NCBI RefSeq assembly: GCF_006345805.1 | Contig: NC_043023.1 | Coordinates: 21,204,001 to 21,268,000 of the forward strand | Source of the DNA: Octopus sinensis | Taxonomy: Eukaryota | Reading direction: 5' to 3' | DNA length: 64,000 nucleotides | In this document: positions 13,452 through 56,686 of the stretch, one piece after another | Position numbering within the stretch: position 1 is the first letter of the stretch | How the letters are laid out: every line of letters starts with the position of its first letter | The notes under the pieces: model-generated | Seen by the model: the letters and a program-made list of their open reading frames with translations, nothing else | What the model was told of the DNA's origin: nothing | Databases searched by the model: none | Translations under genes and position numbers: made by a program

Positions 13452-16400
13452 CTGCAAAAGACACAACAATAAGAAATAATTGCAACAACATTGACAATAA
13501 CATAAAACGCTGTGTACTGTAGGTTGTTAGGAATATAACAAACAAACTTTATCATTAGAGAAATCAAAAAAGAAATAGCTAAGAAACAGGAAAAATATAA
13601 GACATTGTTTTCTATTGACAAAAATAACAAAGAGTTTGAATTAAACGAGATTTTTAAAGAAAATTAATTGAAAATTATACTTGAGAAAATATATGGTAAA
13701 CGAGGGCAGGAAAACTTTTGTGAAGGCAAAAGTATATCAGAACCTCAAGAATTAACATTGACCTCCAACAGTGAAAGCATATGATCCATCCATTTCCTCT
13801 GCTCAATATTCTTGAAAGGGCTGTGGGGAAAGAGTCCTCAGGCACCTCCTCCATAGGGTCCTATCAGAAGCATCCATCATTAGACATTCTGCTTGTATTC
13901 TATGATGTGAAGAACTAAGACTATGGATATCATCCAACCATTTCTTTCTTGGCCTCCCCCTCGGTATCCTGTTCCATTGGTTTGACTTTGAGAACATGTC
14001 CTGTAATTCATTCCTGCAACACCCTGATCACATGTCCGAGGTACCACAGATGTGGAGGAGACGTGGCTCAACCTGGAGAGACTCCCAGATCTCTGAACTA
14101 TAAATCCTATTGAGTAACATTACTCCAAAGACCCTTTAGAGGAATCCCATATATCTGTCTTATTCTGGTAGATTTCAGACCTGGTATTCAAAGGGTCATG
14201 AAAGTACTGTCCCTCTGTGCCATCTACTACCTTGCAAAGTTCCCAAGAGGACACTAAAAATCGAATGATCAGTGATTGTCCAACAGTCGATAATTCTAAG
14301 TCAAATTCAACCCATTTCAAACTTCTCCAATGAACTCCAGGTTCAATCAATTCTACAGAGCCTATTCAGTTATTATTATGTCAGTCTCAATGAGAGATGC
14401 CACCTCCAGTTCATTTTCTGGTAAATTCCCTTAAAGGAATTCTCTGTTTTCGCCTGAGGAGAATGATAGGATTTCGCTGTGTCACCTTTATTAAATCTCT
14501 TTTTATTGAAGCATTTACAGACATATGTCATGTGGTAAAGTCATTGCAAAATGGCAATCTAAATTGGAATTATCAGCTTCCAACACAATAACCCAATAAA
14601 TAATGGCTGCAAGAAGAACCAAACTCAAAGTCTTCTGTTTGAAGAAAGATGCTTTGTTTTAGATGTTAACTTTGGTACTTGTCCTTCATTACAATAACCT
14701 AACAGTGAACCTAAAGAAAATGTAAAACAAATTCACTCACCTGTTTACCCTTAAACAATATATTTTAGTTCCCTCTTCCAAAAGATAATATTAAACGCCA
14801 TTTCTATTTTCTAGTTTATCCATTATTACCAACCATGCTAACCTCAGTGGATATTTTATGAAATATCAGGAATATCGTAAATAAAATTGTCATACAGATA
14901 ACCTATCAATGGGAAATGAGGAATGTAACTTGTTCTCATTCATTCTGACAAATAAAATAGATGAGGTGAAAGTAAAATATATAGAAATCAAATATACTCA
15001 CCCACTTGCCACCAATCACTTCCTAACCTCTTAGCCACTCTCATCAGATTCCTCTCCTTCAGAACTGGACTCTCTGAAATAAATATTTCCAAGTTTTACA
15101 ATTATTGTAAAACTTATTTATCTCTATAAATATTCTGTAGTTTATTGTTGTGGGACATTGTTATCATCAGTGGTTGGCTGGTGACCACTAGGGTTTTGCT
15201 CAGTATTTTTATACTTTCCATTGTGGGACCAGGTAATAGCTCAATATTTAGGCCCGCAACAAAATAGACTAACTTTCCGAAACTTTGTTTCTCTTTAACA
15301 GAGACATCCTACATAATCTAACAATGTTGCAATTATTTCATTTAATTATCATTTCATGAGACTGTTTCTTCTCATAGTTCTATCTCTCCTTTCATATATC
15401 TGAACCAAATCTATGACATGCGACTGTCCTCTAAACTCTAGACTTCACTAACCACCATTCTCCTCATCTTCTGCTAAAGTGCAATATCATCCAATGTGGT
15501 CTCCAAAGATCTCGTCACAAATGCATGACACACCACTTCAAGTAAAATAAACGTAATACCAGTTCTCTTTGCTGTTGGAAAATCTTGAATTTTATCATCC
15601 TACATCCCAGATCACCTGGTCATTATCAGATGCAGGGAATATTTTAAGACTCCTTAATAAAGGTGAGCAATGATCAGTTCTCCACAGATGAAACAAAAAG
15701 TGATATCAGGTGTCCTAAAACACTGCACACTTGTACAAAACCCCATTAACTACATACAACTGGACATCTACACATTAATGCAGTGAAGACATCTGAAATG
15801 GTACAAAAGGACTGATACTCAAAAATATATAAGAAACACGGGAATACAAAGTGCGAGCTCCAAATCTTTTATTTTCCAGAATGTTTGGCATATTTATTTC
15901 TTTTAACCCATCTTCGTTCTGTGACATGATCTCAATGCCTTTACTATTATTGCAAAATTAGGTAGTTTACCATCGTCGTAATAGTTTTTCAAGTTTCCCT
16001 TTAAACTTCATCAGGGTTTCTCCTGCTATTTTGACCTTCACTTGTTTCTGCTGACCTTTCACAAATGACGGGCTTCATTACCCATTTGCATTGAAGCACA
16101 TTCTTCACCAAGTTCCTCAGTCTACCCAGTTAATCCAGAACTATTTGCATATCCTTTTATTTGTTGTTACTATTGTTATGTAATCCATTAATGTCTTCTC
16201 GAGTGTTTTCCTTTGAGCCATTTCTTATCAATCTGCTGATTTAAGTAACATCTCCATAACAATCACAAACCAAATGACTGATTTTGTAGAAACTACAGCA
16301 ATTCCCGTTTCAAAATGATACCAGTCTATCGAGAAAGTTTTCCTCATGAACTGCATATTGAAATTGTTATAGCAGCTCCTCATCAGATCCTTAATCTTTT

Positions 16401-19400
16401 CTCATATATAAAACAGGTCCACTGCTTCCATCAACAATTTGTTTGCTAGAGAACCATAAACCAGATGAAATCACACAACATTCAATCCCTTTTATTCTTC
16501 TTTCCGTCTTGTATCACATCCTAGATTTAAGACACATGTTCCACACAGCCTGGAATGCCAGAGGATTCCAGTCTTCAAGATACTTTTAGTCCCATATTCA
16601 TTATTCTGTAGATTTACAGTTGATCTCTTTGTGAGTACAACCTTGTAAATCTTGCCATTTATATTCAAGGTTGAAATTAGTCTGAACTAATCAATTGGTA
16701 TTTGATTGCTGGTTTCAATGGACATTTCAAACTGTCTATGAATGGGAATCACTGCTTTTGCTTTGGATCTCCAGCATATATCCATCCAGTTCATCTTTAT
16801 TGTATTTTAGCTTTCTGTTTTCAGTATCTGCAAACAGAATTTCCGTGTAGAAGTTAAAGAGGAGCGTTTAATTTTGTTGACGACAATTTTTCTAGTGCTT
16901 TTGGAGCAAAATTGTGCCCAAGGCCCTTTTAAAGTGGTTGATGTTAGGAAAGGCACATCACCATAGAAAAGCCGGAATGTGTTCCTCATCCAATCGAGGC
17001 GGACAGTATTTGTTAATAAGAACTGACATGGATAGGAATCATCCATCCAATCGATAGGAGCATAGACAATCAGATGATAAATGATGAGGGTCATCAGTGT
17101 CTATCTTGGAGAGAGAGAGAGAGAGGACGGTTGTCTCAACATCAAACCTAATACTTTTACATGGATAAAGACTATGTTTAGGGTATGCAATGATAAATTT
17201 ATTATCAGTCAAAAAAAAAAGGCAGGGTGTTCACACAAGGAACACATTTCATTGTAAATCTGTCACATTATGAGAGATATTTGCCTAAATAGCAACAACA
17301 GCAATAACCTATCAGTAAACTTAGTAACTACATATTTTAGTCTTCCGTTTTAAGATACAGTATTAATTCTATTGTCTTCTAAATTATCCATTTTCCGAAC
17401 CATGCCAACCCCGTTGGATATTTTGTGAAATTCCATTGATATCAAAATGTCTAATAGAATTATTATACAGCTAATATTTCAGATGTAAATTAGGAATGGA
17501 TCTTGTCCTCAGTCATTCTGATAAACTACAAATACTCAGGTGAAGGTTAAATTTATAGAAATCCATGAGGTACTGTTATTTGCTACTCACTAACTGGCTG
17601 TGATGTTGTTAAGGCATCCTTCACAGAAGTTGGAGTCTTTGAAATGAATATTTTCAAGCTTTACGTTTTATAGTATAATTTCATTATAGTTATTGATAAT
17701 CAACACTTTATTATTGTGGGAAGGGCATACAGCTGTAAAACTAGTTCGTAGGGATGTGGTTGTGTACCCATGTAAAAGTTATGTTTACTTTGAGGGTAAT
17801 AAGGTGTAAAATATTAGATGAGGGTACAAGATAATGCTATGAAACTTTCAGACAGACAAGTTTAAGAGAGTTAATGGATGATAGCTGATTAATTATCATG
17901 TTAATGCAGCGTATAAACACTAACTATCAATATAGATTGTATAAAATCTGTGTGAAGAACATGTGACATTTGTTACAATTAATATGGTTGTGTCTCAGCA
18001 CAGTTGATATTATGGTAGTTCCATGAGAAACCATAGAAAAATGTAACCATTTCCAGTACTGAATACTAATGATGAATTCTTTTCTTGGTCAAATAACAAT
18101 GACCAGGTTCCATGATCTAATTTCAACAGAACAATCAAGTCGGAAGTAAAACCAAAATGTGGAAGACTGAAAACAGTGACTCTCTTACAATTGAAACCAT
18201 CTCAAAGCCAACAATTTTCAGTATAACGATGTCTATATATGGACAGTAAACGTTATACAAACATCGTAACAAGCGATAATTATATATATATAGTTAGAAA
18301 AGTGTTGTAAGTTCAAGTCACACTGGAATCTCATACGTTCATTCCTTTCCATGTATTGCATATGCTAGCATCAATGTTTTGTTCAAATGTGAACATATGT
18401 TCTCTGTTCAATATGAATGTTATCAAAATCACTGAACCGGTTTTCACAATCAATATTATTATACTGAGCTAATATGTTATACCAGACAGGAAACTACTGT
18501 AACAATCTAAGACAAAGAATTATGATGAGTTACTGGAAGACAGCATCATCATCCTCATCATCAATATTCAAAATTTGTTTTCCAAGCTGGAATGGGTTGG
18601 AAATCTTGACAGGATCTGACAAGCCAGACAACTGCACCAGGCCCCAGATGGTTTCTTTTGCATGGTTTTCTACTGTAGGATGCTCTTACTGATGCCAACC
18701 ACCTCACAAAGTGTACGTGGCCCCTTTTTATAAAGCACAAGTACTGGCATATTTAGCCAAAAGACATGTAAGACAAAGACCCCACAGCCAGGAGAGGGGG
18801 TATTGCAAATTTCTCTCCCCGCATCCTGATACTTTTGTCATCACATTCCCTTCTCACCTCCTGAAAATGTCATCAGCTTCAGTGAACCAAAACATCATAG
18901 AATAGTGAGGACCGTCTAATTATATAGAATGTAACACAACTTGATTACTACTTGTGCTATAATTAAATGCTCCCAGAACACACTAGGAAGTGGTTGGTGG
19001 AAACTAGGAAAGATGACACCACAAGTTTGAAAGGAACGTTTGATATTGTTGGGGAATTGATGATCATTTCTAATGCTTGTGCAACAATAAAATATACCCA
19101 GGACCCTTTATAAAGTGGTTGGGGTTAGAAAGGGTCTACCACCTTAGAAAAGCTGCAATGTTTAAGTGAGATGTTTTCCTCAACAAATGACGGTTGGCAG
19201 TAATTTCAGATACAACTGACTTGGACAGTGATGACCCACCTAGTGTATGGGAGCATGGAGAGCAGATGAGAAAAGATGAAGATGATATCATTTATTGTAT
19301 TGAAACTTTTAACCAGCATCTTTCTTGAAAAGACGGAGAGAAAGAGCATGAGTGAGAGAGAGAGAATGAATGAGTACAATGAGATGACAAACAGGGCGAA

Positions 19401-22400
19401 TATTCTCCTTAACGGGAGAGAACCGTTTCAGGGTTTATATTTAATGTTTGTATCTTTCTTTCTGCGAGTGAATGAGTAACAGATGTTTGCATAAAGTACA
19501 TTTATTGGATATTCATGTTGTTGTAGAAGAACAGAATTTCTTTATAGCTAAGCATTCAAATAAAATGTAGCAGTGGTATCTGTTCTCGGTCATTCTATTG
19601 ACCAAAATAGCTCAGTAAAAGCTAAACTTTATAGAAATCAATTATGTAATGTCATTCTATACTCAGCACGTGGCTCTTCTACTGTCTGGACCTCTTTGTC
19701 TTCAAATATTGGCCTTGCTGAAATAAATATTTCCAAGATTATACTTGATTATACTTGTGACCAAATGACAAAATTTACTCTATTGTGTCTTCTAATTTGA
19801 ACATTATTACCAACAGTGCTAACCTCAATGGGTATTTCATAAACTCACAGTAAATCGATATCTTTAATTCAATTATTATACAGATAATCGTTCAATTAGA
19901 AAATAGGAATGGAAGCTGTTTTCAGTTATTCTTTCAAGCACAATATACTCGGGGAAGAAAACCTTACAGAAATCAATTGGGAACTATTATTTTATACTCA
20001 CCTATTACCTGAGATGCAGCCCCTAATTCCTGACATGTAGCCTCTGTTTTTACACGCCTGTCCTCAAACTTTGGAGCCTCTGAAATAAATATTTCCAAGT
20101 TTTACATTTAAAAATAAACTTTCTTTATCTTTATTTTTATTAAACTCTATCTTGTTATTGTGAGACATTCAATTTCTGTCGTTACTGGTCAAATGTTGAC
20201 CATTATGGTTTTGGTCAATATTTCTGTACTTTCTACAGTGGTCCCATGTAATAGCCCAATATGTCCACAATAAAACAGACTAGCATTCCTGAATCCACCC
20301 TCCCCTCCTCTCTCTCTCTCTCTCTAAAAACACATTAAATATTCTAACAATGTTGCAATTATCTCATTTAATTAACACTTGATAACAGTTTTCTCTTAGC
20401 TTTGTCTTTCTTTTCTTATAACTACCAAATCCATGGCATGGCACAGTCCTCTCATCTCTAGAGTTCACTAATCAACTCTCTAATTAAGTAAAACTGAGCC
20501 CATAAAGACATGTCCTTTATGTGCATACCCTCCACTCCGCACACAATCTGTCCCCTAAAAACATCTCCACAAGTCAAATTGCACACATCCTTCCCCAACA
20601 TGATCCCTAACAAAATATAAAATGTAAGGTGAGGGTACATGATGTTCCTATGACAAAATAAGTTTACATTTCAGACATACAACTGTAAGAGAGTTAATGA
20701 ATTATAGCTTATTAATTATCATGATAATTGGGTATATATGTGATACAATGGCACTGTGCTTGACGGTGCAATACTAGATATCAATATAGATTGTATATAA
20801 TCTGAGTAAAGAACATATAGCCTTCATTACAATCAATATGATTGTGTCTCAGCACAGCTAATATTATGGTAGTTCCATGAGCAAACGAAGAAAGATATAA
20901 CCAAGTCCACTGCCAAATACTAATGATTAATTCATTTCCTGGTCAAATAACAATGACCATATTCTATTAAATAATTTGAACCCAACGATGTCAGTGTGCA
21001 CACAATGCAGAGTGAAGAGGCCTGAGAGAAGTGTTAGACATAATAAGTATCAGATGTGGTGTACAAGAGAGACAACTGCACTGGTATGGTCATGTGTATG
21101 GATGAGGAGAGCTGTGGGAGAAGTGTACCACCCCTCACAGTGGAAGGAATCCGTGGAAAGGGGTGACCCAGGAAGACAGGGGATGACGTGGTGAAACGAC
21201 CTTCGAACGTTGGGCCTCACAGAGGTAATGGCAAGAGACAGAGACCTCTGTAAATATGATGTGATTGAGAAGACCCGGCAAGTGAAGTGAGATCAAAGCT
21301 GTAGCCTATACCAGTGTCGCATAACCAGCCCCTTTTAAAAGTACCCTTGAATCACAGAGTGATAAGTTGCGCTTGAGAAGAATTTCTGAATCAAGTAAAA
21401 CCAAAAACCAGAAATCACAAATCAAAATCAAATGAAGATCGAAATCAAAATGCAAATTGTAATTATGGCCGATGCCAGTGCCGCCTGGCTGGCACCCGTG
21501 CCGGTGGCACGTAATAAGTAACATTCAAACGTGTTTTGTGGCCAGTGCCCGCCTGACTGGTTCCCTGTGCTGTTGGCACGTAAAACAGCACCCACTCACA
21601 CTCTCGAAGTGGTTGGCGTTAGGAATGGCATACATATGTGGAAACCTTGCCAGATCACATTGGAGCCTGGCGCAGCCTACTGCCTTGCCAGTGAATTCGT
21701 CCGACTCATGCTACTATGAAGACGGACCGAAAAATGATGATGATGATGCGTTCCGTCACCAAATGACAATATTAACTCTATTGTGTCTTCTAATTTGAAC
21801 ATTATTACCAACAGCATTAACCTCAATGGGAATTTCATAAACCCTCAGTAAATCGATATCTTTAATTCAATTACTATACGGATAATCGTTCAATTGGAAA
21901 ATAGGAATGGAAGCTGTTTTCAGTTATTCTTTCAAGCACAATATACTCGGGGGAAGAAAACCTTACAGAAATCATTGGGAACTATTATTTTATACTCACC
22001 TATTGCTTGAGATGCAGCCCCTAATTCCTGACATGTAGCCTCCGTTTGTACACACCTGTCCTCAAACTCTGGAGCCCCTGAAATAAATATTTCCAAGTTT
22101 TACATTTAAAAATAAACTTTCTTTATCTTTATTTTTATTAAACTCTACCTTGTTATTGTGAGTCATTCAATTCCTGTCGTTACTGGTCAAATGTTGACCA
22201 TTATGGTTTTGGTCAATATTTCTGTACTTTTTACAGTGGTCTCATGTAATAGCCCAATATGTCCACAATAAAACAGACTAACATTTCTAAATCCACCCTC
22301 CCTCTCTCTCGTTCTCTCTCTCTCTCTAAGAATACATTAAATATTCTAACAATGTACCAATTATCTCATTTAATTAACACTTGATAACAGTTTTCCCTTG

Positions 22401-25400
22401 GCTTTGTCTTTCTTTTCTTATAACTGTGCCAAATCTATGGCATGGCACTGTCCTCTCATCTCTAGAATTCCTCTCTAATTAAGTGAAACTGAGCCCATAA
22501 AGACATGTCCTTTATGTGCATACTCTCCACCCCGCACACAATCTGTCCCCTAAAAAACATCTCCACAAGCCAAATTCCATATACCCTTCCCCAACATGAT
22601 CCCTAACAAGGTGAAAAATGTTAAGTGAGGGTACACGATGATGCTATGTCAAAATACGTTTACATTTCATACATACAAATGTAAGGGAGTTAATGAATTA
22701 TAGCTTATTAATTATCATGATAATTGGGTATATATGTGATATAACGGCACTGTGCTTGACAGTGCAATACTAGATATCAATATAGATTGTATATAATCTG
22801 AGTAAAGAACGTATAACCTTCATTACAATGAATATGATTGTGTCTCAGCACAGCTAATATTATGGTAGTTCCATGAGCAAATGAAGAAAGATATAACCAA
22901 GTCCACTGCCAAATACTAATGCTTAATTCATTTCCTGGTCAAATAACAATGACCATATTCTATTAAATAATTTGAACCCAATGATGTCAGTGTGCACACA
23001 ATGCAGAGTGAAGAGGCCTGAGAGAAGTGTTAGACATAAGAAGCATCAGATGTGGTGTACAAGAGAGACAACTGCACTGGTATGGTCATGTGTATGGATG
23101 AGGAGAGCTGTGGGAAGAAGTGTTACACCCTCACAGTGGAAGGAACCCGTGGAAGTGAGGTGACCCAGGAAGACAGGGGATGACGTGGTGAAGCGACCTT
23201 CGAACGTTGGGCCTCACAGAGGTAATGGCAAGAGACAGAGACCTCTGTAAATATGATGTGATTGAGAAGACCCGGCAAGTGAAGTGAGATCAAAGCTGTA
23301 GCCTATACCAGTGTCGCATAACCAGCCCCTTTTAAAAGTACCCTTGAATCACAGAGTGATAAGTTGCACTTGAGAAGAATTTCTGAGTCAAGTAAAACCA
23401 AAAACCAGAAATCACAAATCAAAATCAAATCAAGATCGAAATCAAAATGCAAATTGTAATTATGGCCGATGCCAGTGCCGCCTCGCTGACAACCGTGCCG
23501 ATGGCATGTAATAAGTAACATTCAAACGTTGTTTGTGGCCAGTGCCGCCTGACTGGTTCCCTGTGCCATTGGCACGTAAAAAGCACCATCCGAACGTGGT
23601 CAATACCAGCCCCCACTTCAACTGGCTCCTGTGTGGGTGGCACGTAAAAAGCACCCACCACACTCTCGGAGTGGTTGGCGTTAGGAATGGCATACATATG
23701 TGGAAACCTTGCCAGATCACATTGGAGCCTGGCGCAGCCTACTGCCTTGCCAGTGAATTCGTCCGACCCATGCTACTATGAAGACGGACGTTAAACGATG
23801 ATGATGATTATGATGATGATGATGCGTTCCGTCACCAAATGACAATATTAACTCTATTGTGTCTTCTAATTTGAACATTATTACCAACAGCATTAACCTC
23901 AATGGGAATTTCATAAACTCTCAGTAAATCGATATCTTTAATTCAATTACTATACGGATAATCGTTCAATTGGAAAATAGGAATGGAAGCTTTTTTCAGT
24001 TATTCTTTCAAGCACAATATACTCGGGGGAAGAAAATCTTACAGAAATCAATTGGGAACTATTATTTTATACTCACCTATTGCTTGAGATGCAGCCCCTA
24101 ATTCCTGACATGTAGCCTCCGTTTGTACACACCTGTCCTCAAACTCTGGAGCCCCTGAAATAAATATTTCCAAGTTTTACATTTAAAAATAAACTTTCTT
24201 TATCTTTATTTTTATTAAGCACTACCTTGTTATTGTGAGACATTCAATTCCTGTCGTTACTGGTCAAATGTTGACCATTATGGTTTTGGTCAATATTTCT
24301 GTACTTTCTACAGTGGTCTCATGTAATAGCACAATATGTCCACAATAAAACAGACTAACATTTCTAAATCCACCCGCTCTCTCTCTCTCTCTATCTATCT
24401 CTCTAAGAACACATTGAATATTCTAACAATGTACCAATTATCTCATTTAATTAACACTTGATAAGAGTTTTCTCTTGACTTTGTCTTTCTTTTCTTATAA
24501 CTACCAAATCCATGGCATGGCACTGTCCTCTCATCTCTAGAATTCACTAATCAACATTCCTCTCTAATTAAGTGAAACTGAGCCCATAAAACATGTCCTC
24601 TATGTGCATACTCTCCACCCCGCACACAATCTGTCCCCTACAAGACATCTCCACAAGCCAAATTCCATATACCCTTCCCCCACATGATCCCTAACAAGGT
24701 GAAAAATGTTAAGTGAGGGTACAGGATGATGCTATGACAAAATAAGTTTACATTTCAGACATACAATTGTAAGAGAGTTAATGAATTATAGCTTATTAAT
24801 TATCATGATAATTAGGTATATATGTAATACAATGGCACTGTGCTTGACGGTGCAATACTAGATATTAATATAGATTGTATATAATATGAGTAAAGAACGT
24901 ATAACCTTCATTACAATGAATATGATTGTGTCTCAGCACAGCTAATATTATGGTAGTTCCATGAGCAAACGAAGAAAGATATAACCAAGTCCACTGTCAA
25001 ATACTAATGCTTAATTCATTTCCTGGTCAAATAACAATGACCATATTCTATTAAATAATTTGAACCCAATGATGTCAGTGTGCACACAATGCAGAGTGAA
25101 GAGGCCTGAGAGAAGTGTTAGACATAATAAGTATCAGATGTGGTGTACAAGAGAGACAACTGCACTGGTATGGTCATGTGTATGGATGAGGAGAGCTGTG
25201 GGAAGAAGTGTTACACCCTCACAGTGGAAGGAATCCGTGGAAAGGGCTGACCCAGGAAGACAGGGGATGACGTGGTGAAACGACCTTCGAACGTTGGGCC
25301 TCACAGAGGTAATGGCAAGAGACAGAGACCTCTGTAAATATGATGTGATTGAGAAGACCCGGCAAGTGAAGTGAGATCAAAGCTGTAGCCTATACCAGTG

Positions 25401-28400
25401 TCGCATAACCAGCCCCTTTTAAAAGTGCCCTTGAATCACAGAGTGATAAGTTGCGCTTGAGAAGAATTTCTGAATCAAGTAAAACCAAAAACCAGAAATC
25501 ACGAATCAAAATCAAATCAAGATCGAAATCAAAATGCAAATTGTAATTATGGCCGATGCCAGTGCCGCCTCACTGGCAACCGTGCCGGTGGCACGTATTA
25601 CGTAACATTCAAGCGTTGTTTGTGCCCAGTGCCGCCTGACTGGTTCCCTGTGCCGTTGGCATGTAAAAAGTACCATCCGAACGTGGTCAATACCAGCTCC
25701 CACTTCAACTGGCTCCTGTGTCGGTGGCACGTAAAAAGCACCCACCACACTCTCGAAGTGGTTAGGAATGGCATACATATGTGGAAACCTTGCCAGATCA
25801 CATTGGAGCCTGGCGCAGCCTACTGCCTTGCCAGTGAAATCGTCCAACCCATGCTACAATGAAAACGGACGTTAAACGATGATGATGATTATGATGATGA
25901 TGATGCGTTCCGTCACCAAATGACAATATTAACTCTATTGTGTCTTCTAATTTGAACATTATTACCAACAGCATTAACCTCAATGAGTATTTCATAAACT
26001 CTCAGCAAATCGATATCTTTAATTCAATTATTATACGGATAATCGTTCAATTGGAAAAGGGGAATGGAAGCTGTTTTCAGTTATTTTTTCAAGCACAATA
26101 TACTCGGGGGAAGAAAACCTTACAGAAATCAATTAGGAACTATTATTTTATACTCACCTATTGCTTGAGATGCAGCCCCTAATTCCTGACATGTAGCCTC
26201 CGTTTGTACACATCTGTCCTCAAACTCTGGAGCCCCTGAAATAAATATTTCCAAGTTTTACACTTAAAAATAAACTTCCTTTATCTTTATTTTTATTAAA
26301 CACTACCTTGTTATTGTGAGACATTCAATTCCTGTCGTTACTGGTCAACTGTTGACCATTATGGTTTTGGTCAATATTTCTGTACTTTCTACAGTGGTCC
26401 CATGTAATAGCCCAATATGTCCACAATAAAACAGACTAACATTCCTAAATCCACCCTCTCTCTCTCTCTCTCTAAAAACACATTAAATATTCTAACAATG
26501 TACCAATTATCTCATTTAATTAAAACTTGATAACAGTTTTCTCTTAGCTTTGTCTTTCTTTTCTTATAACTGTGCCAAATCTATGGCATGGCACTCTCCT
26601 CCCATCTCTAGAATTCACTAATCAACATTCCTCTCTAATTAAGTAAAACTGAGGCCATTAAGACAGGTTATTTATGTGCATACCCTCCACCCCGCACACA
26701 ATCTGTCCCCTAAAAATCATCTCCTCAAGCCAAATTCCATACACCCTTTCCCACCAAGATCCCTAAGAAGATATAACATGTAATGTGAGGGTACACGATG
26801 TTCCTATGACAAAATAAGTTTACATTTCATACATACAAATATAAGAGAGTTAATGAGTTATAGCTTATTAATTATCATGATAATTGGGTATATATGTGAT
26901 ACAATGGCACTGTGCTTGACGGTGCAATACTAGATATCAATATAGATTGTATATAATCTGAGTAAAGAACATATAACCTTCATTACTATGAATATGATTG
27001 TGTCTTAGCACAGCTAATATTATGGTAGTTCCATGAGCAAACGAAGAAAGATATAACCAAGTCCACTGCCAAATACTAATGATTAATTCATTTCCTGGTC
27101 AAATAACAATGACTATCTTTCATTAAATAATTTGAACGCAACAATCAAGACCAAGGGTGAAACACTCAGAAAACTGTGCCTCTTTTAGCATTAATATCAT
27201 CTAAAATCTAACAAGAGTGAGAAAAAGAATGACTATATGGATGGTAAATGTTGTTCAAACAATGTAATAAGTGTATATTATATATAGTTACAAACAAGGA
27301 TTTGTGCATTCAAGTTATATTCAATTTCCGTTTGTATATTTTGTATAAACACCAATAATTTGTTTAAATGCAAACAGATGTTCACGGTTCAATACCAAAT
27401 TTAACATTTAATAAAATTAAGTTCATGATGAATATTCTTATACAGAGTTAATATTTAATTAGAATTTTCTAATTTGCAACAACAAAATGTATTCTTACCA
27501 CAGACATTCAGGGTACACAGCCCCAGAAAATACAACATATTACGACAGACATCTGGCTACATAACAACATCAAGAATAACCTATCAGAAAACTTACGAAA
27601 GATCTTAGTAGAAAAACAAACAACTATCTTAACTCACGAGTTTACACCTAAAAATAATAATAAATTATAGTTCCCTCTTCCAGAAGACAATATTAACTCT
27701 ATTGTGGCTTTTAATTTATCCATTTTACCAAACATGTTAACCCCGACTTTATGAAATTTCGGTAATATTTTTAATACAATTACTTTAGAGCTAACCTTTC
27801 AAATGGAAATTAGAAATGGGATTTGTTCTCCACCATTCTAATAAGCAAAATAGCTGAGGTGAATATAAAATCTATAGAAATTAATTAAGTTCTCTAATTT
27901 TAAACTCATCAACTGTCTCTGCCACAGTCTGCACTCCCTTCTCTTCAAACTTTGGACTCTCTGAAATATGTGTTTCCAAGTTTTATATTTATTTATAGCA
28001 CAATCCCTTTATATTTATTAATAATCTATATTTTATTATTGAGAGACATTCATATCATCAATGGCCAACAAGCGATCATAATGCTTTTGGTCAATATTTT
28101 TATACTTTCAACAGTGGACCCATGTTATAGCCAATATTTAGCTCCGAAACGAACTCTAGTTGATCTTTGTAAATTTCCTCTCTCTGTTAAGATATCCTAC
28201 ATAATCTAACAATGCTGTAATTATATCACTTAATTATCACTTAATAACAGTTTATCTGTAGGTTTTGGTTTCCTTGCTTATATCTATGCCAAATCTATTG
28301 CATTTTCAAAACCCTGATCTTCACTAACAACCTGTTTAATTCCAGTGTCAACAAATTTATTTATCAAAGATATAACAACAAACACATGTCACAACCACTT

Positions 28401-30220
28401 CAAGAAGGAGAAACATACACCTAATCTCTTTGTTAAACATTGTTGCTGATAATTCCTAATTTTAACTTCACAGTTCACCAGAATGTCATCTCATTCAGGA
28501 TATATTTGAAGGTTTCATGATCTGGTTGCTTGACAAACAAAACTGTCTCTATTAGCCTTAATATCCTCCAATTACAAACATAACAACATGGAATTGTGTG
28601 TTAAAGTCTCTCAAACTAGTGACATCTAATTTTACTCCTTTAAAATATTCTACTGAATTTAATACTTTACCAAAGATGACACTGATGTCCTTGTAAGTAC
28701 TGTTGTATTTACTTATCTTCTAACAACTCATAATTAATTATAGTGTTGATGGAGATTTATTGATACTTCAGTTACTCACTAATTATCTTGCAGAATCCTC
28801 CATTATCTTTATGTTGCAGACTACAACCCTCTTGAAGTGTGACATGTTTCCTACTTGGATAAGGTCAATGTTTAGTGTATGTAGTGTGAGAGATATACTA
28901 TTACAGAGAACAGACACTAGGAACACCTTTTATCATAAATCTGCCAGATTATGGCAGACCTCTGCCTACATAACAACATGAAGTATATTATTCTACACAA
29001 TAAGGGCAGTGGGACAATGAGGACAAACAGACAGATCAGCAAAGAATATTCTTACCAACTCGACCTCTGCCTGTTATTACAGGTTTTAAACACTTCAGAC
29101 ATTGTTGAAGTGGAATGTTTGAACATTCTTCACATGTCAGAAGGTGTTCACAGGGATGAACTTTTGTTGTGGCCGCTTTATTTCTGCACAGCAAACATCT
29201 GTGGACAAAACAGAAACATCCAATCAATAACATTCATTTATAACAAATATTACATTATTTACATGTTCGGAATAGAGAATATTATAAGATACATCAGTAA
29301 CTACCAAGAGTAGAGCAGAAATTCTTCTTTAAACAATTACATACATACAGATATTTGTGTAGTTAAATGGCATGCTCACACACACACACACATACATACA
29401 TACACACACATGCATACATACATTGATAAATGTTTGTCTTGACCCTGATACATCATAGAAATTGGTTGACACACAGTGAACTACATATATTCCAGAAATA
29501 TATTTCACTTCTAACATCGAACTCATTTCTTCTGAACAAATATATCTACACAGGTTTCTTTATATACACATACTTTATTATATACATTTCGTCACCACAG
29601 ATTAGCAGAAGAAGGTTCCAGTACTGTAGAGTGGCAGGAATAGCCCGAAACCAGACCTGGTCTGCTGGTCCTGTTGCTATAAGATGGTAGGGGTTTGATC
29701 CCCTGCTCGCAATTAATCGGATGCACCTTTGCATCGTTAATTAGCTAGAGGAGGTGTTCTCTTGGGGTTAAACATTCACAGTAGAGTCCATTCGAACAGA
29801 TATTCATGTTGGCGTGCCTACGAATATTACTTATATATATTTTTGTCCAACCCGTGCTAGCACGGAAAACGGATGTTAAACGATGATGATGATGAGGATG
29901 ATATATCTATCATATATATATATATATGCGGAGGCGCAATGGCCCAGTGGTTAGGGCAGCAGACTCGCGGTTGTAGGATCGCGGTTTTGATTCCCAGACT
30001 GGGCATTGTGAGTGTTTATTGAGCGAAAACATCTAAAAGCTCCACGAGGCTCCAGCAGGGGGTGGTGATCCCTGCTGTACTCTTTCACCACTCTTTCTTC
30101 TGTTGGCCTGCTCGCTTAGCCAGCGGGGTGGCGTCATTCGAAGGCTAAAACAATGTGAATGCATTGTGACCAGTGATGTGTAACTACATCTGATGGACTG
30201 GTCGGTCACGTGATCACTTG

Positions 30221-30276
<56 letters not shown>

Positions 30277-33200
30277 GTGTATGCATGATAGGTTTCGGCC
30301 AGTATTAGCGCAGGTCATGTTTAACGTAATCCCACTACCGGGCGAATCAGGATGCGGACAACATAACCCACTCGAGGAGAGAGTTGCTGTTTACGGGGAC
30401 ATATCCTGGTGTTGGTGTTTTATCCGGGATTTCTTGAAGGATATTTCAAAATACTTCTTGAACTTTATGGGGGTCTTTTTCTGCTTTAATGTATTTTGGT
30501 GTAATGCTAAATGGAGTGGGTCCACTTGAGGGGAAATAATTTTGCCGTATTGTTGTTAAGTGATGCGAGTTTGATTTATGCTGTGGGCAGATAATACGGG
30601 GCCCAGGCCTTGGGTATATCTTAAAGCTGATGCCAACATCATTTGGGCAATGCTGATGAGATATTTTCCACCATGATTTTGGGAGGCTTTATTATATGTA
30701 TCGTGCATGTAGTTCTAGTTTTCTGTCCCTTATTTTGCCCCTTTCCAATAATATCAGCTGCGCTCTGTAGACTTCTTCTTCTTCTTCTTCTTATTATTAT
30801 TATTATTATTATAATAACAACATTCACATAAACGATTATTTGTAAAAGCAAATAAAATCTTCTGAAGCTTGTCAATTGAAGAAAACAGATCAATATTTAT
30901 ACAATCCAAAAATCAATATCTATGAACAATAGGCGCAGGAGTAGATGTGTGGTAAGTAGCTTGCTTACCAACCACATGGTTCTGGGTTCAGTCCCACTGA
31001 GTGGCATTTTGGGCACGTGACTTCTACTATAGCTTCGGACTGACCAAAGCTTTTTGAGTGGATTTGGTAGAGGGAAACTGAAAGAAGCCCGTCGCATATA
31101 TATATATATATATGTGTGTGTGTGTTTGTGTGTGTATTTGTCTGTCTGTGTTTGTCCCTCCACCATCGCTTCACAACCGATGTTGGTGTGTTTATATTCC
31201 CGTAATCTAGCGTTTCGGCAAATAAGTACTAGGCTTACAAATAATAAGTTCTGGGGCCGTTTTTTTCGACTAAAGGCAGTGCTCCAGCATGGCCGCAGTC
31301 AAATGACTGAAACAAGTAAAAAGTAATATTTGAATTTCAACAGACAAAGAAAGCTTTGTATATTCACTAAGGGGGAAATGTGTCTGCTTCTTAAGTAGCA
31401 AATACAGAGAGATGTATGGCAAAGAAATTGCCAAATCTTATAAAATACGGGAGTGAAAGGCGACTAAAACACCTAGTAATGGTATATGTGTTACTTGAAT
31501 TATTTACGTTTCCAGGCAGTTTTTTTTCTTCTATGAAGATATGTGGCAATATTCCATCAGTATTTGCAGAAATATAATATATACACTGTTGGTGTGTGTT
31601 TGTAGGTTATTTTTCTATGAAATCATTTGAAATATTGACTGATTCGGACTTAGAAGAGTGAGAAAAAGTTGTTGGTAGACAGATAAATTCCACTTAATTC
31701 TAAGTAACAGTTTCAAAATGGAATTCATTCACTTCATTATTTAGATCTATATTTTCCTATTGATCACAAATCTTTAAAATAGGGAACGAAGAGGAGTAGG
31801 TGGGGGTGGACAGTGAAGTATAAATGTCAACACTACGAATCATGTGAATGTAATCAAAATCGTGTTCTTTCTTTGATCTCCTAACAACTGCATATTGTTT
31901 ATTGTGTGGCCTTTGACAAAGACACTAGCGACAGTATAATGTATATCGTAGAATTGAAACGAAATAAACATATAAATATGATTATATACAAAATAGGAAA
32001 TGTACTGGTTTATCCGTTCCATAGCCAGGAAATACTTACTGTGGTTGTAAAAATGTTTCTAAGTTTTTTCTCAAATTTGGGTCCTTAATGAGGTCCAATG
32101 GTCTGTTATTTTTGTTGTTTTTATGGTGAAAGTCAGCTCCCTGGCTGGCGAGATATCTCGCAACCACTATACCAGAGAGACTTCTTTTCTTTTTTAGGTT
32201 GGTGGCAGTGCAGCACTACAAATAATGAAATATAAAATGATGACAATATTACACAAAGATTCATAACAAATGCCCCTAATTACACAAAAGTTCATCTAAA
32301 TTTACTCATAGGTTGTTTATCCACTAATTAAAGCAATTACAAAGTATTGAGTTCCTACATAATCTTTAATTGAGTCCATTTCCCATTTTTATGCTTTTAC
32401 TTTATTTTCAACACTGAGACACCCTCTAAATATATTGTCATTACATTGAGCAGGACAAACCGTATTGATTAACATCAAGCTCATTGATAATTAATGAGTA
32501 AATATTTACTTGTCAATCACAAATATCACAATATATTCAATAGAAAAGTCAAATATAGGAAGAACAAACCAACAAGAACCTATCTATATAATTGGCTTGA
32601 TAAAGGCGACCGTGTGGCCATAAGAAAGAGTATTGTATATATAAATATAACACAACATGAGAAGATAGAACATAAGTTATATCAGAAACAAAAACACCTA
32701 TAACATAACAAAGTCAATACCACACAGACATGACCAAACATATCAATAATGTTTCCATAATTAAGCAAGAAGCATCTTTGAATGATGACGGTGAAGTAAA
32801 GGAAGCAGGAATTAGTGTCAAGTCAGAAAAGTAATGGAGGAGTATTTTTAATCACGGACAAGTGAATTTTGGAAGAGGCGACTCGCAAGTCTACCAGATA
32901 GATGGAAGAGCATTGTAGAAAATGAAGGAGAACATGTTTTAGATTAACAGAAAAAAGTACTTTGTTTATCTTAATTTTGAAAAATATAAGAATTATAAAA
33001 AACTGCTTCATTTTTGAGATGACAGCAAAAAGTCCAGTAGAATTGAAGTCCATACTGTTGCTGACATCAGATAGCCGAATACAGTGAACGGGCTTTAAAC
33101 AGCATTTTACAAGATATATACTCAAACTCAAAATCATTACTTGTGTGTGTATGTGTACATGAGTGTGTGTGTGCCTAAGTACAGAACTTAAATACATGAA

Positions 33201-33797: not shown

Positions 33798-34527
33798 CAT
33801 CATCATCATCATCATCGGACGTTAAATGATGATGATGATGATGATGATGATATAAATATACACACACAAACAATTTAAAAACTTACTTCGTTTAGTAAAT
33901 CCATGGGTGCACCCTCGGAATTAAACACTTCTGTTTCCATGGCAAGGTGCAAACAGCTGTTACCTTCACCATCAACAGCATTTATGCTTGCACCCAGGGC
34001 TATTAGCTTGTGTGTCATTCCGAGGTGACCCCGGGAAACGGCTTCAAGCAATGGTGTCATTTTATTTTTGTTCCGAATATCCAACTGAAGTGAACCCTTT
34101 GTGGAAGTAAAAATAGAAAATGAAAATTTACATGAAAATCAGGATGGATATCAATGTGTCATTATTGTCTTCTACTGTATACTTGATCAAACTGATCATG
34201 TACATTTGATGTTTGCCCGTAAAATCAACCTTCGTAAGATCCTCTAGATGTTGCTTTGAGAATGTGTTCTAGACAGGATAAAGATGTCCTAAATAGATTG
34301 TTTCAGCTTAATCTACCTTTATTCCTAACTATAGTAAGTTTTAGGGGAGCTGAACACGAGTGAACACATGATTAACAGATCAAGACTAGTAAAGAAGAAT
34401 TAAAATTTCTAAAGTATACTTTTGATGTTGTTATAATTAATAAGAAGTTCATAAAACTGTTGAGGTGGTTAGTGTCCACCCCCATGAAATTAATGCGTGT
34501 GCACACACACATACACAGAAACACACT

Positions 34528-37123: not shown

Positions 37124-38655
37124 AGAGTTAATAACACCCATAAGGATGTGCTTTATCTATTCACCAAAGTGAATGGTTGCCTTGTCCAGGAGAAACCAAT
37201 GTTGTCAGATGTTATCCCTCGTTCATCGGATGTTTCGACTCTGAAACGTAACACCCTACCATTGGTGGGTCAACAGAGGTGGCCAATTCACTGCTCCTCA
37301 ACTCCTCAAGCCTTCCAGCGTTAATCTTCTCTCTTACACCAAAGCCAGCAAAAGGCTCTTTCAGTTGCCTCTCCCATCCGTGCACACCCACTCTTCCCTC
37401 CTTACCTCTCATTACAGTTGCTGTAAAAATCCTCCATGCCGACTGGACAAAGAATTCCCTACAGCCAACCTCCACTAGGAAAATCCATACCTGCCATACC
37501 TTCTCCCTGCAATTCTGCAGAATGTTCTTATATCTGTCACACTTCCGTTCATGGGCCTCGTTACAACCCGCTCCCCACGTGACTGTTCGTTCAATTATGA
37601 TAATTTTCTCAGCCTTTTCAGACCACAGGACCACATCAGGCCTCAGGGTTGTATGGACAACCTGGGGAAACTGCAATCTCTTCCCTAAGTCTACCTTCAT
37701 ATCCCATGGTTGAGACCCTTGCAGCAAGCTATGTTTTGCTTTTGCTGGCTTTACTGGTTTTTCTCCCTCTTTCACGAACTTAATTGTGGCAGATATCTTC
37801 CCTTGGTGATGATGTTTCTTACACCTTTACTGCTCCAGGTTGTGAGCAAGTATTTGTATCTGCCTTGAGAAAGTGTTATTCTTCACCCTGCCAAGATGTG
37901 TGCCAGAGTGCCCCTTTCCCACAAAGTCTACGCAGCTGGTCTTCCCTCAAACCTTATCTGTGCAGGTTTGATGGTGTCGGGAGTGTGTCATACACCGCTC
38001 GATGCAGGAAGGAGATGTGCAAAGGTTCCAGCCTCCACAGGTCAGTCCATGTGAGCTTCCTCTCAGGGAGATCCCATTTAGTCCATACACCCAGAGATAC
38101 CAACTCCACAGCTCTTGATTTCCTTTTAGCTTCCTCCTGGTTCCACATTGCTTTCTGAGTCATAGCCCGCCTCTCCCTGGTGTCTGCTTTCTTCTATTGT
38201 TGGAAATAGGAAGACCCAAGTCCCTTGCGACCCCAACATGTAGCTCCAATTATGGCGCGTAGCTCCAGCATGCCTTCAGCCTGAGCGACAGCGGTGGTAG
38301 TTGCCCACACTTTGTGGTAATACCTGCATGTCTGACAAGCTCGTCCTTAGAGTCTCTGTACATCATTACATTACATTTCGCTACTTTAAATTCCTCCACT
38401 ACAGATGACAGGGAAAAATGTCGATGATGAGGATTAGAGAAAAGAGTGAAGAAAGAAATGAAATATCATGGAACAATATATGTGGCTACTTTTCATATTG
38501 TGTATAAAACATTTCATATTGTGTATAAAATAATAAACAATCAAATTTGAGAAGGCAATAAACAGAACAACTTACTATTGTTGGATCCTTTCTTATTAAT
38601 TTTTTAAACCCTTCAATGTCATCCTCCGAAATTTTCTGTCTGATATTCGCTATGT
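13252..38655 (-). CDS. Spliced gene: ankyrin repeats - RING-HC - tandem VQT mini-exon repeats - Death domain (Mind-bomb/MIB2-derived putative E3 ligase); 5' end incomplete
   Basis: Exons 38576-38655, 33887-34084, 32040-32215, 29056-29198, 26158-26235, 24077-24154, 22000-22077, 20002-20079, 15002-15073, 13252-13451. All have AG acceptors, all but the last have GTRAG donors, and phases join (1-0, 0-0, 0-2, 2-1, 1-1 x5, 1-stop) into one open frame of 1181 nt (~393 codons). Confidence 0.85.
13760..14090 (-). mobile_element. Degenerate RTE-type LINE 3' fragment
   Basis: Peptide PRGRPRKKWLDDI...ASDRTLWRR. Confidence 0.65.
15002..15073 (-). CDS. Exon: Death domain helices 1-2
   Basis: tttcAG / GTGAGT, 72 nt, phase 1-1, (E)SPVLKERNLMRVAKRLGSDWWQV. 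Joins the terminal exon to give L..VA..LG.DW..VA.FLG. Confidence 0.88.
17591..17638 (-). pseudogene. Degenerate mini-exon copy (acceptor AA instead of AG)
   Basis: Flanks homologous to the other modules; donor GTGAGT intact, acceptor tttcAA; 48 nt phase 1-1, TPTSVKDALTTSQPV. Confidence 0.6.
19667..19717 (-). pseudogene. Mini-exon copy with CT donor (possible in-frame cryptic GT 3 nt upstream)
   Basis: tttcAG acceptor, RPIFEDKEVQTVEEPR, then CTGAGT at the homologous donor position; GTGCTG after 19670 would keep phase 1. Confidence 0.6.
20002..20079 (-). CDS. Repeat mini-exon 4 (EAPKFEDRRVKTEATCQELGAASQVI)
   Basis: tttcAG / GTGAGT, 78 nt, phase 1-1, open. Confidence 0.8.
22000..22077 (-). CDS. 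Repeat mini-exon 3 (GAPEFEDRCVQTEATCQELGAASQAI)
   Basis: tttcAG / GTGAGT, 78 nt, phase 1-1, open. Confidence 0.82.
24077..24154 (-). CDS. Repeat mini-exon 2 (GAPEFEDRCVQTEATCQELGAASQAI)
   Basis: tttcAG / GTGAGT, 78 nt, phase 1-1, open. Confidence 0.82.
26158..26235 (-). CDS. Repeat mini-exon 1 (GAPEFEDRCVQTEATCQELGAASQAI)
   Basis: tttcAG / GTGAGT, 78 nt, phase 1-1. Differs from copies 2 and 3 by a synonymous AGA/AGG change. Confidence 0.82.
27910..27960 (-). pseudogene. Mini-exon copy with AT donor (ESPKFEEKGVQTVAETV)
   Basis: tttcAG acceptor intact, 51 nt phase 1-1, open; donor reads ATGAGT instead of GTGAGT. Confidence 0.62.
29056..29198 (-). CDS. Exon: RING-HC finger (Mind-bomb type)
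   Basis: ccacAG / GTAAGA, 143 nt, phase 2-1. CLLCRNKAATTKVHPCEHLLTCEECSNIPLQQCLKCLKPV gives C-x2-C...PC-x-H-x3-C-x2-C...C-x2-C. Confidence 0.9.
29928..30217 (+). mobile_element. tRNA-derived SINE (third family)
   Basis: Head GGAGGCGCAATGGCCCAGTGGTTAGGGCAGC..GACTCGCGG..GGTT.GATTCCCAG with A/B-box-like motifs; partial reverse copy at ~5450-5510. Confidence 0.75.
30290..30640 (-). mobile_element. Degenerate CR1/L2-group LINE 3' fragment
   Basis: Minus-strand peptide GPTPFSITPKYIK...ILQEIPDKTPTPGYVPVNSNSLLEW resembles Crack/Daphne RT C-termini (from recall). Confidence 0.5.
30931..31323 (+). mobile_element. tRNA-derived SINE
   Basis: Full family consensus from GGCGCAGGAGT to CAGTCAAATGACTGAAACAAGTAAA. 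Confidence 0.88.
32040..32215 (-). CDS. Exon: last ankyrin repeat / linker (MIB-like)
   Basis: tttgtAG / GTAAGT, 176 nt, phase 0-2. CCTATNLKKKRSLSGIVVARYLASQGADFHHKNNKNNRPLDLIKDPNLRKNLETFLQP resembles the Mind-bomb 'A.FLA..GADL..KN.KG.TPLDL..DPNL' segment. Missed by the ORF track. Confidence 0.88.
33887..34084 (-). CDS. Exon: two ankyrin repeats
   Basis: cttcAG / GTAAGT, 198 nt, phase 0-0. LDIRNKNKMTPLLEAVSRGHLGMTHKLIALGASINAVDGEGNSCLHLAM. Confidence 0.92.
35515..36845. repeat. ~1.3-kb polypyrimidine/polypurine (CT-rich) low-complexity tract
   Basis: Almost exclusively C/T on the + strand; source of the spurious FSL-rich ORFs. Confidence 0.95.
37140..38410 (-). mobile_element. HERO-like (R2-group, REL endonuclease) non-LTR retrotransposon 3' fragment, disrupted
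   Basis: GVWTKWD..RKLTWTDLWRLEPLHISFL.RAVYDTLPTPSNLHR, then WDMKVDLGKRLQFP..TTLRPDVVLWS...E.TV.W...EAHERK..RY...VEVGCR.F (PD-(D/E)xK REL domain). Confidence 0.85.
38576..38655 (-). CDS. Most 5' coding exon found (N-terminal ankyrin cap)
   Basis: ttcaaaAG / GTAAGT, 80 nt, phase 1-0. IANIRQKISEDDIEGFKKLIRKDPTI reads into LDIRNKNKMTPL like an ankyrin helix-loop. Confidence 0.65.
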
Positions 38656-44100: not shown

Positions 44101-44590
44101 ATCTGGCTAGTGTGTCTGCCAGAACGGTAGGTGACTAGGTGAGAGGTGGGTTTCCTGAAGTTGGTATTGCAGACCATAAGGTCATTTGCATCGCAGAACT
44201 CCAGCAGCCTGGTTCCCTCCTCATTACGAGAGCCAAAACCGTAGCCTCCATGAACGCCATGGAAGCCCCCGACATACCGACCAACATGTCCATTAAAATC
44301 CCCTGCCACGAAGAGAAGGTCACTGTCATATGTCAACGAGGTAGTCCGCAATAGGGTGTCATAGAATTGGTCTTTTTGTCCTTCCGGTAGCCCTGGTTGA
44401 GGGGCATATGCCGAGATGATGGTAGCTGAACTATGGTGAATGACTAATCTAATTTTAATTACTCTGTCACTTACTCTGACTACCTCGATTACCTTATCTA
44501 CCCATTTCTCCGCAAGAAGTATACCCACGCCCCCGACCCCGTCAGTGTTCCCTGCCCAAAAATCTTGTACCTGTGTTCCTTGCCTGTGAG
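41186..44590 (-). mobile_element. RTE-clade LINE, 5'-truncated, young but disabled
   Basis: APE endonuclease (SAYAPQ, GDFNGHVG), RT (YRGIKLL, QFGF, GVHQGS, YADDL), C-terminal LWYGHVARM..GRGRPRKTW, 3' UTR with (GAT)n tail; frameshift plus stop at ~42275-42290. Confidence 0.95.
42267..44528 (-). CDS. RTE ORF remnant: APE endonuclease + reverse transcriptase + PHD-like zinc finger
   Basis: 753-aa open frame; no true N-terminus (truncated within APE); continues out of frame in 41688-42260. Confidence 0.9.
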   Translation of the reverse strand: MGILLAEKWVDKVIEVVRVSDRVIKIRLVIHHSSATIISAYAPQPGLPEGQKDQFYDTLLRTTSLTYDSDLLFVAGDFNGHVGRYVGGFHGVHGGYGFGSRNEEGTRLLEFCDANDLMVCNTNFRKPTSHLVTYRSGRHTSQINYILARKRERGLLTNAKTFPGEECTPQHRLVVSDFRIRAKWLPRRRPAWRRRVWKLKDPANGQRFRDILLEAFDKIEGDIASFNVEDNWRFLRDNLLTATDQICGWSKVPARPRVTWWWNTVVDRAIRQKRQAWKDWKNGGSRELYQTARREARRQVYLARGEADKKKFANVLSREDKRLEVFHVARQCVRENRDVVGEKCVRTDDGSLALNEDAKREVWRCHYERLLNKENEWDKESLPNVNPTEGPAIRVENSLVVKAIRSMKTGKAPGPSGITAEMLKISGSVGYNLVTRIVNQVIHEGVIPNDWCGSILVNCYKGKGDALDTNNYRGIKLLDQVMKVTERVIAQLIRERVSLDEMQFGFVPGKSTSDAIFLVRQLQEKYLAKDKPLYLAFVDMEKAFDRVPRSLIWWSMRKLGIDEWLVRAVQAMYRDAVSKVRVGNMYTEEFKVEVGVHQGSVLNPLLFIIVLQAITEEFKTGCPWELLYADDLALIAESLSELEEKFQVWKEGLESRGLRVNLAKTKVVISWKVDNPQMSSGRWPCSICRKGVGRNSIRCTQCKLWTHKRCSNVKGRLTGKIVFVCGRCSGALTSENLQKTTSVTFQGKKTISC

Positions 44591-44629
44591 TGTGTTCCTT
44601 GTATATGTATATATAAATATACCTTCAGC

Positions 44630-56300: not shown

Positions 56301-56686
56301 ATGTGTCATTCTTTAAGATGATAAGTGATGAATAGAGTAGGATTCGGCTACTAATTCTAGCAGATATATTTACCACATGGAGATCCCTTTATTTGTTTAG
56401 CTCCCTTTTTGTTGGAGATTAACTTTGGAAATAAAGATTGAAATTTCATTTGTTGTTGGCGTTGTTGTTGTAAGCCCCGGCATGTCCCTAAATACGTCCA
56501 TTGTTATATAAACAGTTTAAATATCCTGTGGGATGTTCCCAAAAATGAAGAGTGTAATTCCATTTAGTGAAACATACTTAAAATGCATATTTTGTTTTCA
56601 AGTAGAACCTCCTTGTGGACAGAATTGTCAGTAAATATACAGTTTCTATTTCTGTCAGCCAATAGTTTTACATTAGGCTTCATCCA

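Follow-up and report, generated by a model that had tools for sequence, protein, structure and literature searches.

The 64,000-nucleotide (nt) stretch of Octopus sinensis DNA analyzed here (in the following termed the window) is located on contig C27 of the 2.72-Gb genome, and carries on its minus strand a gene of the ankyrin-RING-Death type, which is a ubiquitin-ligase-type gene. In this gene, the first exon of the Death domain and seven short exons between the RING and Death exons (mini-exons) form eight homologous exon-plus-intron modules (M1–M8; Table 1). We infer that Death exon 1 (M1) is the source exon of the mini-exons, which very probably arose from it by tandem duplication, in the direction from Death exon to mini-exon. 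All eight exons are in phase 1/1, measure 48–78 nt in multiples of three, and are preceded by the same acceptor-side sequence.

The homology of the modules to Death exon 1 was confirmed for both flanks and exons. By self-comparison, the Death module aligned with modules at 17.3–17.7, 19.5–19.75, 19.8–20.5, 21.75, 23.8, 25.9, and 27.6–28.3 kb with 66–76% identity, so that all of the at least eight copies described in an earlier note on this DNA were located. The same note had claimed that the Death exon at 15002–15073 and the mini-exons share their flanking intron sequence, and this held when M1 was compared with each mini-exon module, with splice signals excluded and the best of 200 shuffles as benchmark. 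The downstream flank exceeded the best shuffle in all seven pairs (68–78% identity) and the upstream flank clearly did so in five of the seven (73–77% identity), while the upstream flank of M2 was marginal (44 vs 41) and that of M3, which is mostly deleted in the window, was not above the shuffles. The Death intron of the window has a 15-nt deletion after the donor. The 26-nt spacing from donor to TGATTTCT that is seen in the mini-exons is also present in the Death exons of more distant paralogs, so that the donors of both exon types are homologous. The exons themselves were compared with a weight matrix derived from 10 Death exons (nt 3–44, ungapped). For six of the seven window mini-exons, no more than a single shuffle scored as high in each of two sets (20,000 base shuffles and 20,000 codon shuffles), and an absence of significant exon similarity, named in the earlier note as a possible refutation, was thus not observed. 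M2 failed this ungapped test (1,966 of 20,000 shuffles) and needs a 3-nt (one-codon) gap. A compensating frameshift that seemed to separate M1 from M8 was no longer apparent when other Death exons were compared. Equal phase at both exon ends, homologous flanks and exons, the same orientation, and adjacency are thus all present, as expected for tandem duplication of symmetric exons. Four of the modules, M4–M7, are 94–97% identical over 1.2 kb.

The direction of the duplication, which the earlier note had left open when it proposed that the motif came from a duplicated piece of a folded domain, is indicated by an outgroup. Two RIPK1-like genes on contig C26 (the name is taken from the O. bimaculoides proteins P0097 and P0116) contain a 75-nt phase-1/1 exon that ends at the same W-x-x-V position, has a similar acceptor and donor context, and shares the downstream intron position with Death exon 1. 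Over 14 codons, these two exons have on average 4.2 and 4.0 residues in common with Death exons versus 1.1 and 2.1 with mini-exons. They share L4, K7, L9, K/R11, LG, and W with the Death exons and are devoid of F4, V9, Q10, and T11 of the mini-exons. Because the outgroup exon combines Death-type residues with the same boundaries, it polarizes the change from Death helix to mini-exon. Comparable helices occur in Death domains of Argonauta and of a crinoid. The Pfam Death match of database protein P0004 starts at the leucine that corresponds to V of VQT, and in a low-confidence structural model M1 comprises helix 1 and the beginning of helix 2. The RIPK1-like Death genes are arranged in tandem (L105–L107, G000:C26:23375000-23404999), and P0110 and P0116 contain an Asn/Ile/Gly-rich stretch, which we take to resemble a RHIM or amyloid motif, presumably as in IMD-type adaptors.

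Intermediate forms were found in the paralogs. We compared 35 regions, i.e. the window and 34 paralog regions, which were picked through module or RING matches and are therefore biased toward loci of the family. The number of modules per region ranged from one (four regions with the Death module alone) to at least eight, which provides the loci with fewer modules whose comparison had been suggested earlier. Gap-free 72-nt intermediates exist, among which SPKFEDKGVQSDAQLLGATSKQG retains LG and the penultimate Q, whereas the 72-nt type SLNLEENRSHSTSKKVEVKQQKV looks separately derived. The 78-nt exons retain LG after a 6-nt insertion. The order of events would thus have been from the 72-nt Death exon via motif-bearing 72-nt exons to the 78-nt (+6), 54-nt, 51-nt (−21, with loss of LG-x-W), and 48-nt forms, with a recent re-duplication giving rise to M4–M7 as the last step. 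The claim that the transition had been captured at several stages is correct with qualifications. Its showcase, the exon at 27910–27960 (M8), and the flanks of this exon are homologous to those of the Death exon, as the claimed colinearity implied, but M8 has an AT donor and is a probable pseudo-exon in O. sinensis, and the best intermediates reside in paralogs and not in the window. In another subfamily (L135, L136, L142), the module has shrunk to ~166 bases and is repeated, with alternating VQT and VKT units.

The repeat encoded by the mini-exons, D-K/R-x-V-Q-T, is of the LC8/DYNLL type, for which the consensus [D/S]-K-x-[T/V/I]-Q-[T/V]-[D/E] has been described (PMC3078936). Helix codons 9–11 (L-x-R/K) correspond in register to V-Q-T. 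From CTT CTG AGA, the codons found in the family, VQT is reached by one first- or second-position change per codon, and one Death clade already carries the Q. In the window, M5–M7 and M3 match five of the six consensus positions and M8 matches four, while M4 and M2 fail. Among distinct intact units, 20 of 35 reach at least 4/6 positions, always with Q at codon 10, compared to a mean of 1.15 and a maximum of 7 units in 2,000 shuffles, but the units are related by descent, so that this count overstates their independence. None of 16 Death exons exceeds 2/6. Proteins of the family carry EDKGVQTD, EDKCVQTE, and KDKETQTQ, with KxTQT forms in P0041 and P0060, and the units of O. bimaculoides keep K-x-V-Q-T/A. 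The first of these peptides is nearly identical to EDKGVQCE, through which gephyrin binds LC8 (PMC12057147). In a paralog, the linker (residues 53–78) has a predicted local distance difference test score (pLDDT) below 50 and is the least confident part of a low-confidence model. An LC8 gene was found in the genome. Based on these features, we consider it rather probable that the intact repeats bind LC8. As a separate observation, dynein light chains of the LC8 family have at least 22 matches in the genome, of which many lack introns, and this family may itself have expanded.

Taken together, we favor, with moderate confidence, the explanation that copies of the Death exon became a disordered linker with predicted LC8-binding repeats. 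The copies, once released from the Death fold, would have become disordered. Because LC8 is a dimer, the sites lie directly behind the RING, and IAP- and IDOL-type RINGs work as dimers, binding of LC8 (DYNLL) to the D-K/R-x-V-Q-T repeats would dimerize the ligase just behind its RING and would also pair the Death domains. The LC8 dimer binds its two partner chains with strong avidity (PMC3078936). The strength of dimerization is predicted to be set by repeat copy number, exon skipping, and loss of the motif by Q-to-K changes. The more far-reaching proposal is tentative: in an octopus-specific family, a duplicated Death alpha-helix may have been converted by one to three point mutations, perhaps repeatedly, into a beta-strand LC8 docking motif, with dimerization strength tuned by copy number, skipping, and a one-base Q/K switch; all stages in the birth of a short linear motif out of a folded domain would then have been preserved.

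Several observations weigh against the favored explanation. Fifteen of the 35 intact units stay below 4/6 consensus positions, and Q-to-K changes recur in at least three classes including the intact M4. Splice sites are broken in three of the seven window mini-exons (the donors of M8 and M3 and the acceptor of M2). The ratio of nonsynonymous to synonymous differences (pN/pS) was ~0.7 in all three comparisons, indicating weak constraint. The Pfam Death match (PF00531) of P0004 (19.5 bits, E 0.0011) is below the cut-off of 22.6. Moreover, the window copy seems to be a 5'-shortened family member that lost its start codon and the middle ankyrin exons: it has ATA at the start position of the family, where relatives have Met, and no match to the middle ankyrin exons was detected between window positions 34097 and 38653. 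Further points of this kind concern the splice joints and the flank tree and are given below.

The strongest competing explanation, although unlikely in our view, accepts the same origin and assigns no function to the motif. The repeats would be in-frame debris or a spacer of variable length, and the likeness to LC8 sites would have been fixed once and then copied, as the Death helix (E-K-x-L-Q/L-R) lies only one to three substitutions from the LC8 consensus. The dead splice sites in three of seven window copies, the repeated Q-to-K loss, and the pN/pS near 0.7 fit this view. Much of the enrichment might simply reflect common descent, since a single origin is compatible with the tree, and look-alikes of short linear motifs often arise by chance (PMC4654906). 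On the other hand, 10 of 11 old mini-exon classes retained the Q, encoded by CAG as well as by CAA, versus 4–7 expected on a neutral star tree, in a post hoc test that assumes this tree shape and gave P values of 0.001–0.06. The conserved units of O. bimaculoides also speak against mere debris, as do the different letters by which classes reach the consensus (VQT, TQT, SQTE) and the intact splice sites in 33 of 33 copies of the 75/78-nt class.

With regard to selection, the dN/dS comparison suggested in the earlier note revealed the weak constraint mentioned above but no evidence for positive selection. Exon distances exceeded intron distances (0.51 vs 0.35 for Death-mini pairs), but since synonymous distances and Death-Death pairs likewise exceed the intron distances, the idea that positive selection had accelerated the exons was dropped, and the module introns are not a neutral yardstick.

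Splice joints in sequence contigs connected the RING exon to a 78-nt exon, 78-nt exons to each other, 78-nt to M3-type exons, M3-type exons to Death exon 1, 78-nt exons to Death exon 1, and Death exon 1 to exon 2, whereas M2 and M8 were joined across. These contigs belong to runs presumed to be RNA, originate from related organisms with ~1–3% divergence, and could represent paralogs; the large DNA-like run X19 contained none of the listed joints. The joints show splicing in the family and not in the exact window copy, in which M2, M3, and M8 are probably not spliced. The peptides of M2 and M8 were absent from the 217 proteins compared. A similar peptide, ETPMCVKEVLTTSQQI, is annotated at the place of M2 in O. 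bimaculoides protein P0036, which suggests that the M2 class predates the split from O. bimaculoides and later lost its exon status. M3-type exons are present in seven database protein models even though 13 of the 17 copies in the genome (L115–L131) have a CT donor, a discrepancy that could be due to cross-mapped reads from paralogs, to alleles, or to an unusual donor.

It is improbable that the mini-exons, with the same origin, serve another purpose as a variable modification or decoy surface, on which Q-to-K changes would switch the motif class or add lysines for self-ubiquitination. The resulting VKTE and VKKE fit the SUMO consensus (hydrophobic-K-x-E), Q-to-K changes recur in the 78-nt class, the C9539/C27 51-nt class, and C7, and the repeats adjoin the RING in a large, fast-changing family. 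Yet the 51-nt VKTV forms have no acidic residue, and most units keep the Q.

A reversed direction, with the motif exon first and one copy becoming or replacing the first Death helix, is very improbable. It is permitted by the flank tree, which is unrooted. This tree, an intron phylogeny of the kind proposed in the earlier note, comprised 32 modules after exclusion of 13 near-duplicate or faulty rows of 45. Its backbone was star-like with 14 of 29 inner branches open, the Death/mini label needed four changes, and a single Death clade was not rejected (p-AU, from the approximately unbiased test, 0.085). The tree settles neither the direction nor the number of origins and leaves the old duplications unordered; the direction is carried solely by the outgroup exon, the flanks of which showed no alignment with the module beyond ~20 nt near the splice sites. 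In a tree of the eight window modules only M4–M7 were grouped, and the placement of M3 beside M4 was an artefact of a shared intron. Against the reversed direction stand the RIPK1-like genes, which do not belong to the family but have a Death-type exon with identical boundaries, the match of the residues of this exon to Death domains of other phyla, the lack of any mini-exon-like unit outside Octopus among 30 named matches, and the four paralog regions with the Death module alone.

That the flanks are a dispersed repeat, or were homogenized by conversion around unrelated exons, is extremely improbable and largely refuted: even though the genome is repeat-rich and our choice of regions biased, all 169 profile matches in the 35 regions have the orientation of the gene and either enclose an exon or are fragments next to an exon (120 with a recognizable acceptor, three of these spurious and dropped), the exon-adjacent flanks had no match elsewhere in the window, and the exons themselves are significantly alike, so that the repeat unrelated to exon position considered in the earlier note did not appear.

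Table 1 Exons and modules of the ankyrin-RING-Death gene in the window, listed in the direction of transcription.
Feature	Position	Strand	Evidence
Remnant of the family's first coding exon (end approximate)	38575..38653	-	tblastn of P0029 residues 1-28; sequence
Ankyrin-repeat exon	33887..34096	-	Pfam Ank; P0002-P0004
Exon between ankyrin repeat and RING	32040..32215	-	100% to P0004 59-117; contig joint to RING exon
RING exon, zf-C3HC4_3, IAP/IDOL-like, ends in phase 1	29056..29198	-	Domain and structural matches
M8, 51-nt mini-exon SPKFEEKGVQTVAETV, donor AT; module ~27629-28303	27910..27960	-	AT in 10/10 copies; 0/217 proteins compared
M7, 78-nt mini-exon, DRCVQTE, intact; within ~2.08-kb tandem unit	26158..26235	-	P0004
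M6, 78-nt mini-exon, DRCVQTE, intact	24077..24154	-	P0004
M5, 78-nt mini-exon, DRCVQTE, intact	22000..22077	-	P0004
M4, 78-nt mini-exon, intact splice sites, anchor Q to K (DRRVKTE)	20002..20079	-	P0004; contig joints
M3, 51-nt mini-exon RPIFEDKEVQTVEEPR, donor CT	19667..19717	-	CT in 13/17 copies, GT in 4/17; present in model P0002
M2, 48-nt exon relic TPTSVKDALTTSQPV, acceptor CAA	17591..17638	-	CAA in 10/10 copies; contigs join across M2
M1, Death-domain exon 1, 72 nt (helix 1 and first half of helix 2), inferred source exon; module ~14732-15460	15002..15073	-	Pfam Death match; model helices; RIPK1-like counterpart
Death-domain exon 2 with stop codon	13252..13451	-	Domain scan; contig joints to M1

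The window exons match the O. sinensis database proteins P0002–P0004, annotated as 'MIB1/MIB2-like', letter for letter, and the database models of this gene begin at a Met at position 34060. Mind bomb proteins (MIB1/MIB2) have N-terminal Mib-Herc2, ZZ, and REP domains that precede the ankyrin repeats. None of these domains was detected in Pfam scans of seven family proteins including the full-length P0012 and P0029. A Mind bomb ortholog is thus ruled out by domain content, and the database name reflects ankyrin-RING similarity only. The best structural relatives of the RING are IAP- and IDOL-type RINGs. For the Death domain, PF00531 is assigned precomputed to the relative P0042, and weak matches to the PIDD Death domain were obtained (E 0.012–0.017). 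A model of P0016 shows five helices, the first two of which start in Death exon 1 (mean pLDDT 58), and a fold search with this low-confidence model gave no match with E under 0.001.

The gene belongs to a large family, as among the 40 best of 370 candidate DNA matches to the Death module, 29 show 94–100% identity. All family-type proteins among the 30 named matches of 150 come from O. sinensis, O. vulgaris, or O. bimaculoides, and a second homolog search with P0042 as query returned only P0042 itself. About 15 kb beyond the window is a near-identical inverted gene copy (G000:C27:21282500-21296500; L031, L032), either a recent duplicate or a second haplotype, which contains two 78-nt exons, both of the Q-to-K type, versus four in the window. 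Within the window, an orphan piece of another Death exon 2 with neighboring sequence (55542–56472, plus strand, 53% amino-acid identity) faces the main gene, and a 785-codon open frame on the minus strand (42267–44624) resembles, by eye, the endonuclease and reverse transcriptase of a long interspersed nuclear element. Tandem arrays of intronless Death-domain copies with stop codons, spaced ~3.5 kb apart, are located on G000:C1 near 41.75 and 107.1 Mb (L109, L113) and are probably amplified processed pseudogenes. The O. bimaculoides protein P0072, named adhesion-GPCR-like, has a C-terminal Death domain of the octopus family after Ser/Thr/Gln repeats, and a Death module is also present at locus L108; a transfer of the module from one gene to another is conceivable.

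Tandem duplication of symmetric exons is known to build disordered regions (PMC3632108). Those systems resemble the octopus gene in their same-phase neighboring exons, internal duplication, and, as predicted for the octopus linker, disordered product, but their duplicated exons were already disordered, whereas the octopus repeats would have started from an incomplete fragment of a folded domain, which remains in use next door. Likewise, in the standard model (PMC4654906) short linear motifs arise ex nihilo when disordered regions acquire a few mutations. Common to both cases are the few substitutions that create a motif in a weakly constrained segment and its quick gain and loss; the octopus raw material, in contrast to the pre-existing disordered regions of that model, is a duplicated domain helix with traceable introns. 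As the same paper contrasts motif birth with domain duplication, the octopus case would join both. The multivalent LC8 clients ASCIZ, GKAP, and KANK1, and gephyrin, also have several Q-anchored motifs in a likely disordered linker. Different from these, the octopus gene has one motif per exon, a copy number that varies among paralogs, and a position between RING and Death, and its binding is predicted only. The octopus 'MIB1/MIB2-like' models (P0002–P0005 and relatives) represent the same gene and repeat isoforms in automatic annotation, with ankyrin repeats and RING; a Death-like domain is present in addition, and the origin of the repeats is not noted. The RIPK1-like proteins P0097 and P0116 likewise have a Death domain split over two exons by the same phase-1 intron, with similar sequence around the splice sites, but no ankyrin-RING part was seen, their exon is one codon longer, and no mini-exon modules were detected. 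In the open literature (titles and abstract starts), we found no paper on this family, on a domain-to-motif case of exon duplication, or on LC8 together with RING and Death, and bioRxiv 2023.09.15.557927 contained nothing relevant for the terms tried.

What is unusual is the probable source of the repeats, namely part of a folded domain that continues to be used one exon downstream; the introns prove the kinship. The origin of short linear motifs and disordered linkers is usually untraceable because their homology fades fast. Here, the ancestry is recorded in the ~500 bases of intron that surround each exon, and the starting state can be read from the outgroup exon. In three Octopus species, dozens of paralogs provide natural intermediates (the Death helix and full-length VQ, shortened, lengthened, Q-to-K, and dead forms), which can be made as peptides and assayed. 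The family is likely part of octopus immune or cell-death signaling. If the predicted LC8 binding is true, it would provide this large and unstudied family, whose members combine a ubiquitin-ligase RING with a RIPK1-like Death domain, with a mechanism, and the DNA of these animals may show how a folded domain gave birth to a binding motif.

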